A DNA stretch of 64,000 nucleotides from Parachlamydiales bacterium (GTDB lineage Bacteria > Chlamydiota > Chlamydiia > Chlamydiales > SM23-39): contig JBNLAH010000006.1 of the NCBI GenBank assembly GCA_050302075.1, forward strand, positions 73,560 to 137,559, read 5' to 3'. How positions within the stretch are numbered: position 1 is the first letter of the stretch; every line of letters starts with the position of its first letter. Positions 37,271-37,780 of this stretch are shown here, piece after piece. The position numbers and the translations under genes were made by a program. Below the pieces are notes generated by a model. The model was given only the letters and a program-made list of their open reading frames with translations, was not told the origin of the DNA and did no database searches.

Positions 37271-37780
37271 ATGACAAAAACTATGAAAGCAAAGGAAATT
37301 TTTAATGAAAAGGACCTATCAACCAAGCAAAAGACGCCGACAAAAGGCGCATGGATTCCGTGTAAGGATGAAAACAGCAGCAGGACGCAAGGTAATCAAC
37401 CGCAGACGCCGTCATGGGCGCAAGAAGCTTGCAGTATAAATTACAAGTTCCCAAAAGAGTTTAGACTCTTAAAAAGTAAGGAATTTAAAAAAATTTCTCG
37501 CAGTCGAAAGCGCTTAAAGTCAAAATATATTATTATAGATTATATTTTTGAATCACAAGCGCCTTCGAGGATGGGTATTGCCGCATCAAAAAAGTTCGGG
37601 AAGGCCCATGAGAGAAATCGTTTTAAGCGCATCACAAAAGAAGCGTACAGGCTGACTAGAAAAGAGCTTCCGCATTTTATTTCATTTGTTGTACGTCCAA
37701 CTTTTGAGGCTAAAAAAGCTAAGATGCAAGACATTCAAAAAGAAATGCTGTTTCTTTTAAATAGTGCAAATAGAAAATGA
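37271..37780 (+). CDS. rnpA: Ribonuclease P protein component; start uncertain (37271, 37283 or ATA 37436)
   Basis: [32 protein letters not shown] (RNR motif). Confidence 0.92.
37305..37439 (+). CDS. rpmH: 50S ribosomal protein L34; not in the ORF track
   Basis: Translated by hand: [44 protein letters not shown], 44 aa; AAAGGA RBS at 37291. Confidence 0.97.

Follow-up and report, generated by a model that had tools for sequence, protein, structure and literature searches.

The window is a stretch of 64,000 nucleotides of contig JBNLAH010000006.1 from a Parachlamydiales bacterium (assembly GCA_050302075.1), and it contained the genes of RNase P protein (rnpA) and ribosomal protein L34 (rpmH) overlapping on one strand. 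The features at this locus, numbered by their position in the window, were:

37283..37780, + strand: rnpA, RNase P protein, likely 165 aa, from the open reading frame, Pfam and NCBIfam matches and the conserved ATG 37283
37305..37439, + strand: rpmH, ribosomal protein L34, 44 aa, matching PF00468 (E 1.5e-20) and TIGR01030, in the +1 frame within rnpA
37271..37273, + strand: first ATG of the rnpA frame, probably not the start, changed in four relatives
37292..37296, + strand: AAGGA, Shine-Dalgarno (SD)-like, 8 nt 5' of the rpmH ATG and 3' of the rnpA ATG
37436..37439, + strand: ATAA junction, ATA of the rnpA frame over the rpmH stop, a rival start, kept in relatives
37240..37268, + strand: putative promoter TTGCAA-17 nt-TATTTT, read by eye, 8/12 consensus matches
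37777..39726, + strand: UvrD/Rep helicase gene, overlapping the end of rnpA as ATGA, context
37031-37168, - strand: rpmJ, divergent from rpmH-rnpA, context
36707-37012, - strand: rpsN, divergent from rpmH-rnpA, context

The L36 encoded by rpmJ was 45 aa long and had no cysteines.

The rnpA frame could be read from 37271 to 37780 on the forward strand (169 aa) with no stop, enclosing all of rpmH in the +1 frame, and both this open reading frame and the profile matches bore out the nested arrangement given in the original prediction. Residues 60-165 of the 169 aa form matched Pfam Ribonuclease_P (PF00825, E 1e-24, 87 bits against a cut-off of 22.3), TIGR00188 was matched at 47.7 (cut-off 38.35), and the RNR motif of bacterial RnpA was present. 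A structure model of the same form, built with an alignment of 11 sequences, gave an alpha/beta fold for the core (pLDDT 79-97), while residues 1-50 reached a pLDDT of only about 45-52. By profile, motif and modelled core, the product of 37283..37780 is a bacterial RnpA, and the 51-residue N-terminal extension of its 165 aa form is predicted to be unstructured. Only one rnpA match was found in the genome, which is 96% complete with 33.5% GC; rnpB of type A (260 bits) was present and HARP gave no match in it, so that RnpA is presumably needed.

Upstream of the RnpA core, the only ATG, GTG or TTG codons in the rnpA frame were the ATGs at 37271 and 37283. The end of rpmH reads GTA TAA, which places ATA at 37436 in the rnpA frame, overlapping the TAA; this reading of every codon agreed with what had been claimed. 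An ATG, GTG or TTG over or beside the rpmH stop, as in a start-stop coupled rnpA, was found neither here nor in the relatives, which carried ATAA.

It had been proposed that this ATAA could be a misread ATGA. The contig of run X1 was identical to the window and X1 may be its source run, so it gave no independent check. The contig of run X2 covered 37150-37850 (701 nt) with 37 letters differing from the window; at least 33 of the differences were listed, six of them synonymous in rpmH, and among those listed none fell at 37436-37439 or at the ATGs, or created a stop. ATAA was unchanged in the contigs of X1-X4 and X10 and in the metagenome loci L277, L341 and L350, with no ATG or GTG at that place, and L341 and L350 kept it over 12 and 10 rpmH differences, respectively. 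X3, X4 and L277 share the alleles of X2 and were counted with it as one lineage. Since these diverged relatives retained both ATAA and the open frame, an assembly error was ruled out, its remaining probability being close to nil. The metagenome pattern scan had given 114 loci, five of which were rpmH, four of them chlamydia-like; the fifth (L363) was unrelated and had a closed rnpA frame.

Both upstream ATGs had been named as possible starts, and only the second withstood comparison. ATG 37271 was changed in L341 and L350 and in the contigs of X10 and X12, and is disfavoured by its loss in these four relatives. ATG 37283 was unchanged in every close relative covering that site, and together with the open frame it was kept in L277, L341 and L350 and, over the covered parts, in the contigs of X2, X7, X10 and X12. 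Four related proteins (P0002-P0005, 70-84% identity) all contained MKAKEIF and three of them began there, although two of the four are identical in sequence to L341 and L350 and add no further witnesses. The alignment of close relatives, which had been put forward as a check, thus showed the overlapped frame open, ATG 37283 kept and ATAA at the junction, and the start of rnpA is likely ATG 37283 rather than 37271.

Around the leader, a promoter scanner returned 0 sites at its threshold; a promoter-like element with the same spacing as TTGCAA-17-TATTTT was seen in the leader of sister genus g5, and TAnnnT peaked 37-44 nt 5' of rpmH over 112 loci. ATG 37271 sits directly 3' of the putative -10 box. 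From the putative promoter at 37240-37268, the mRNA would begin near 37275, which would leave ATG 37271 untranscribed. SD-like trimers preceded 53% of starts in this genome against 18% further upstream, and none was present 5-16 nt before ATG 37283. AAGGA is called SD-like by its sequence, as no 3' end of 16S rRNA could be located in the assembly. RNA folding of leader and junction gave nothing beyond shuffled sequences (z 1.12, -1.34 and 0.18), with a leader fold energy of -2.3 kcal/mol.

For this gene taken singly, a non-chance origin of the open frame is only suggestive. None of the seven sites of rpmH at which a T would create a stop in the rnpA frame (risky sites) carried T, and the probability of a stop-free frame was 0.0095 under synonymous recoding with genome codon usage, 0.025 from codon-box rates at the seven risky sites, and 0.098 from the frequency of T at the safe sites of this same gene, thus about 0.01-0.10. 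When close relatives and g5 were added (seven sequences, two of them identical here), T stood at 0/8 risky and 13/25 safe positions. The genus of this genome (g1) and g5 are sister genera (support 99), and g5 showed a CTAG junction, an open frame, a homologous leader and an ATG at -25, one codon further up; it also carries an in-frame ATT at -13, which makes it a weaker witness for an upstream start. The upstream ATG has no SD, and so short a leader might be conserved for other reasons.

Stronger evidence came from the chlamydial family f1, in which 99 of 103 genomes were matched, 97 were fetched and 75 loci with rnpA in the same frame were kept (L015, with a frameshifted rpmH, 21 loci with another frame or with rnpA at least 60 nt downstream, and G020 and G021 were left out, and G123 was unscored). 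All 35 loci lacking an ATG, GTG or TTG at the junction, from 14 genera, had an open frame and an upstream start; the frame was open in 5 of 27 loci with a junction ATG or GTG and in 10 of 13 with a junction TTG. The nested layout thus occurred in 50 of the 75 loci, and the third frame was stop-free in none (0/75). A canonical codon 8-32 nt downstream was present in five of the 35 (L042, L059, L079, L086 and L096). When the 70 loci with the core near the junction were classified, 32 were open with an upstream start, 38 had a junction start and none was without a canonical start.

The compared groups differ in G+C (0.54 vs 0.47), and T use was therefore compared between sites within genes. In the 35 loci without a junction start, stop-creating T was found at 0 of 264 risky sites and T at 158 of 796 safe sites, and 7.8 stop-free loci were expected in the composition control against 35 observed, though a good number of these loci are closely related and not independent. 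In the group with junction ATG or GTG, T stood at 46/210 risky and 142/520 safe sites, with 3.5 stop-free loci expected and 5 observed. A MutS tree, built by a quick method from 80 rows (70 from the family, 10 outgroup), required at least 15 changes of state, and a tree-aware test on 11 independent pairs gave on average 5.8 pairs in the same direction and 0 in the opposite one (median p 0.03). These comparisons point strongly to avoidance of synonymous stop-creating changes across f1 and show a clear imprint of selection. An in-frame ATG 4-28 nt 5' of rpmH was common in open loci (45/50) and rare in closed ones (3/25), so it is not a mere by-product of the SD; in 41 of the 50 open loci it stood at -7 or -10 from rpmH, mostly as GGATGA. 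The rnpA ATG of the present genome is at -22 instead, and the f1 signal thus applies to it by analogy.

Other arrangements were seen in the same material. In L007, GGATGA stands at -10 and the overlapped frame has no stop, although rnpA there has an ATG of its own 141 nt downstream in another frame; this may be a remnant of a former nested layout. In eight loci of A+T-rich f1 genera (L021, L025, L064, L067, L074, L095, L100 and L013), rnpA lay in the other overlapping frame, with a likely start at an ATG at rpmH +76 or a TTG at +109. L015 (rpmH) and L058 (rnpA) appeared frameshifted, probably by assembly errors, and the 154 aa database protein P0027 joined an L34 N-terminus to the C-terminal half of RnpA through a frameshifted middle, probably also an assembly artefact.

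Outside f1, two overlapping sets of chlamydial loci were read. The first held 75 loci (15, plus 60 hand-picked from 150 listed of 296 matches), some chosen for long open frames and hence not random, and the second held 80 of 562 loci. Among 56 same-frame loci of the first set, 33 had a junction start, 5 an open frame with an upstream start, 7 an ATG at rpmH +44, and 11 no canonical start, one of which (L243) had GTG 17 nt downstream; the last class makes non-canonical initiation of rnpA likely in Chlamydiota. An in-frame ATT at -13, -16 or -19 was present in 8/11 loci without a canonical start vs 6/33 junction-start loci of the first set, and in 12/13 vs 4/41 of the second. Counted from the last base of the rpmH stop, it lay 13-16 nt upstream, in loci with a closed rnpA frame and no canonical start, in L008, L204, L205, L209, L213, L215, L220 and L223 of the first set and in L119, L127, L133, L141, L146, L147, L158, L175, L176, L178 and L192 of the second. 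By its position and distribution, this ATT is likely a conserved AUU start of rnpA in the non-f1 loci. The seven +44 loci (L110, L195, L197, L202, L221, L227 and L234) had no junction start, and their frame was open from just 5' of the ATG, so that the two genes overlap in part, by about 90 nt. Nested-type loci were also seen in four families outside f1 (L003, L212, L239, L248, L193 and L228), with an open frame and an ATG at -16, -13 or -7 or a TTG at -7.

For the window, the reading best carried by these data is that rnpA starts at ATG 37283, 22 nt 5' of rpmH, and is read through all of rpmH into a 165 aa protein (probability about 0.78). Its main supports are that the open frame encloses rpmH, that no canonical start stands at the junction, that the ATG is conserved and that stops are avoided throughout the family; the f1-wide comparison thus favoured the Thermus-like nested gene among the options first proposed. 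If translation of rnpA began chiefly at AUA 37436, through termination of L34 and reinitiation, and the open frame and upstream ATG were incidental or a minor second route, the protein would have about 114 aa. This option, also proposed at the outset, stays a minority rival and is unlikely. The ATA occupies the usual -4 position and was kept in all close relatives, closed frames without a canonical start exist in other chlamydial families, and a poor start could suffice, because RnpA is needed in E. coli at about 1/130 of L34 (PMC9945441). However, all closed ATAA or ATAG loci without a canonical start (L008, L205, L209, L213, and L119 of the second set) also carried ATT at -13 or -16, so that AUA alone has no clean precedent in the sample; none of the 70 f1 loci fell in the class without a canonical start, g5 has CTA at this place, and the conserved A is at a four-fold site with several other third positions equally unchanged. 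ATA 37436 could still add a short form of RnpA.

The enrichment of ATT where a canonical start is missing speaks for near-cognate initiation at AUU inside rpmH, for which ATT 37355, with AAGG 7 nt upstream, would be the candidate here. Yet no ATT was present at -13, -16 or -19 in rpmH of this genome, and ATT 37355 was changed in the X12 contig and its residue is Leu in P0005, while ATG 37283 was kept, which leaves this start very improbable. Ribosomal frameshifting, another of the mechanisms in the original prediction, would produce an L34-RnpA hybrid by a -1 shift, which the frame relation permits, and P0027 carries both Pfam families; but the stretch joining the two parts of P0027 looks garbled, and the slippery heptamer X XXY YYZ was absent from rpmH here and in g5 and occurred in 9/50 open vs 10/25 closed f1 loci. 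A late shift needs no wholly open frame and would leave the upstream ATG unexplained. This mechanism found no support and is extremely improbable.

Under the preferred start at ATG 37283, rpmH and rnpA would be carried on a single mRNA with its 5' end near 37275. L34 would be initiated behind the SD-like AAGGA (37292-37296, 8 nt spacing), while the AUG of rnpA would lie, with no SD, about 8 nt into the mRNA, whose leader is A-rich and folds weakly. Such an AUG would be expected to initiate weakly, giving much L34 and little RnpA, in keeping with E. coli, where L34 exceeds RnpA roughly 130-fold. The upstream start would then replace the weak GUG or AUG coupling at the rpmH stop used by most chlamydiae.

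The nested rnpA/rpmH pair of Thermus thermophilus was reportedly described by Feltens et al. in PNAS in 2003. In Thermus, the two starts lie 4 nt apart in AUGGAUG behind a single GGAGG, and the available text of a 2022 paper names rnpA-rpmH as the sole described bacterial case (PMC9841429); the overlap is also cited in PMC11230408, and RnpA is given as 40-50 aa longer in Thermus and Deinococcus (PMC2566870). The present locus resembles it, as far as these sources describe it, in that rpmH lies wholly within a stop-free rnpA frame, the offset is +1 (4 nt there, 22 nt here), RnpA is extended by about 40-50 residues (51 predicted here), and rnpA starts upstream of rpmH and not at the junction, the use of that start being inferred here. 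It differs from Thermus in its A+T-rich chlamydial host (33.5% GC), in the 22 nt spacing with the SD-like AAGGA 3' of the rnpA ATG, in place of a shared SD with 4 nt spacing, and in being deduced by comparison where the Thermus case was shown by experiment. As the two starts share no SD, the initiation mechanism would differ from that of Thermus.

With the usual rpmH-rnpA operon, which has a weak or coupled start in ATGA or GTGA (PMC9945441) and is the most frequent arrangement among other chlamydial loci, the locus shares gene order, one probable transcript and a low expected RnpA; it departs from it in having no ATG, GTG or TTG at the junction and in keeping the overlapped frame stop-free. 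No publication on a nested rnpA in chlamydiae was found in a literature search of passages from mostly non-subscription papers, and the available text of PMC12548453 and PMC4919922 contained nothing on an rnpA/rpmH overlap.

The layout appears to have arisen independently of Thermus, since the frame is closed in most chlamydial loci outside f1, and it would then be a case of convergence. Within f1, the free MutS tree placed g1 and g5 apart from the clade with ATG at -7 or -10. A separate origin of their nested locus was dropped: joining them to that clade was not rejected by the AU test (p 0.565), and the constrained tree was 4.1 lnL better.

It may tentatively be proposed that the start of rnpA has moved repeatedly in Chlamydiota, and that in the present genome ribosomes translating RnpA cross the SD of rpmH, so that initiation of RnpA and L34 would compete. 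The positions used would be a GUG or AUG at the junction, an AUU lying 13-16 nt short of the rpmH stop, an AUG at rpmH +44 or +76, an AUG within the rpmH SD at -7 to -10, and, in the present genome, an AUG at -22 that lacks an SD and stands at the front of the mRNA. If true, this would be a second way of reaching the Thermus layout, by a different mechanism, and it would set the ratio of RNase P to ribosomes.

The nested layout is that of 50 of the 75 same-frame loci of one chlamydial family, in this genome in a form where the SD is not shared. Family f1 thereby offers a natural series for the gain and loss of a full out-of-frame overlap between two essential genes, suited to testing how far an essential protein of low copy number can depend on non-SD or non-AUG initiation, and the starts of rnpA are likely mis-annotated across Chlamydiota.
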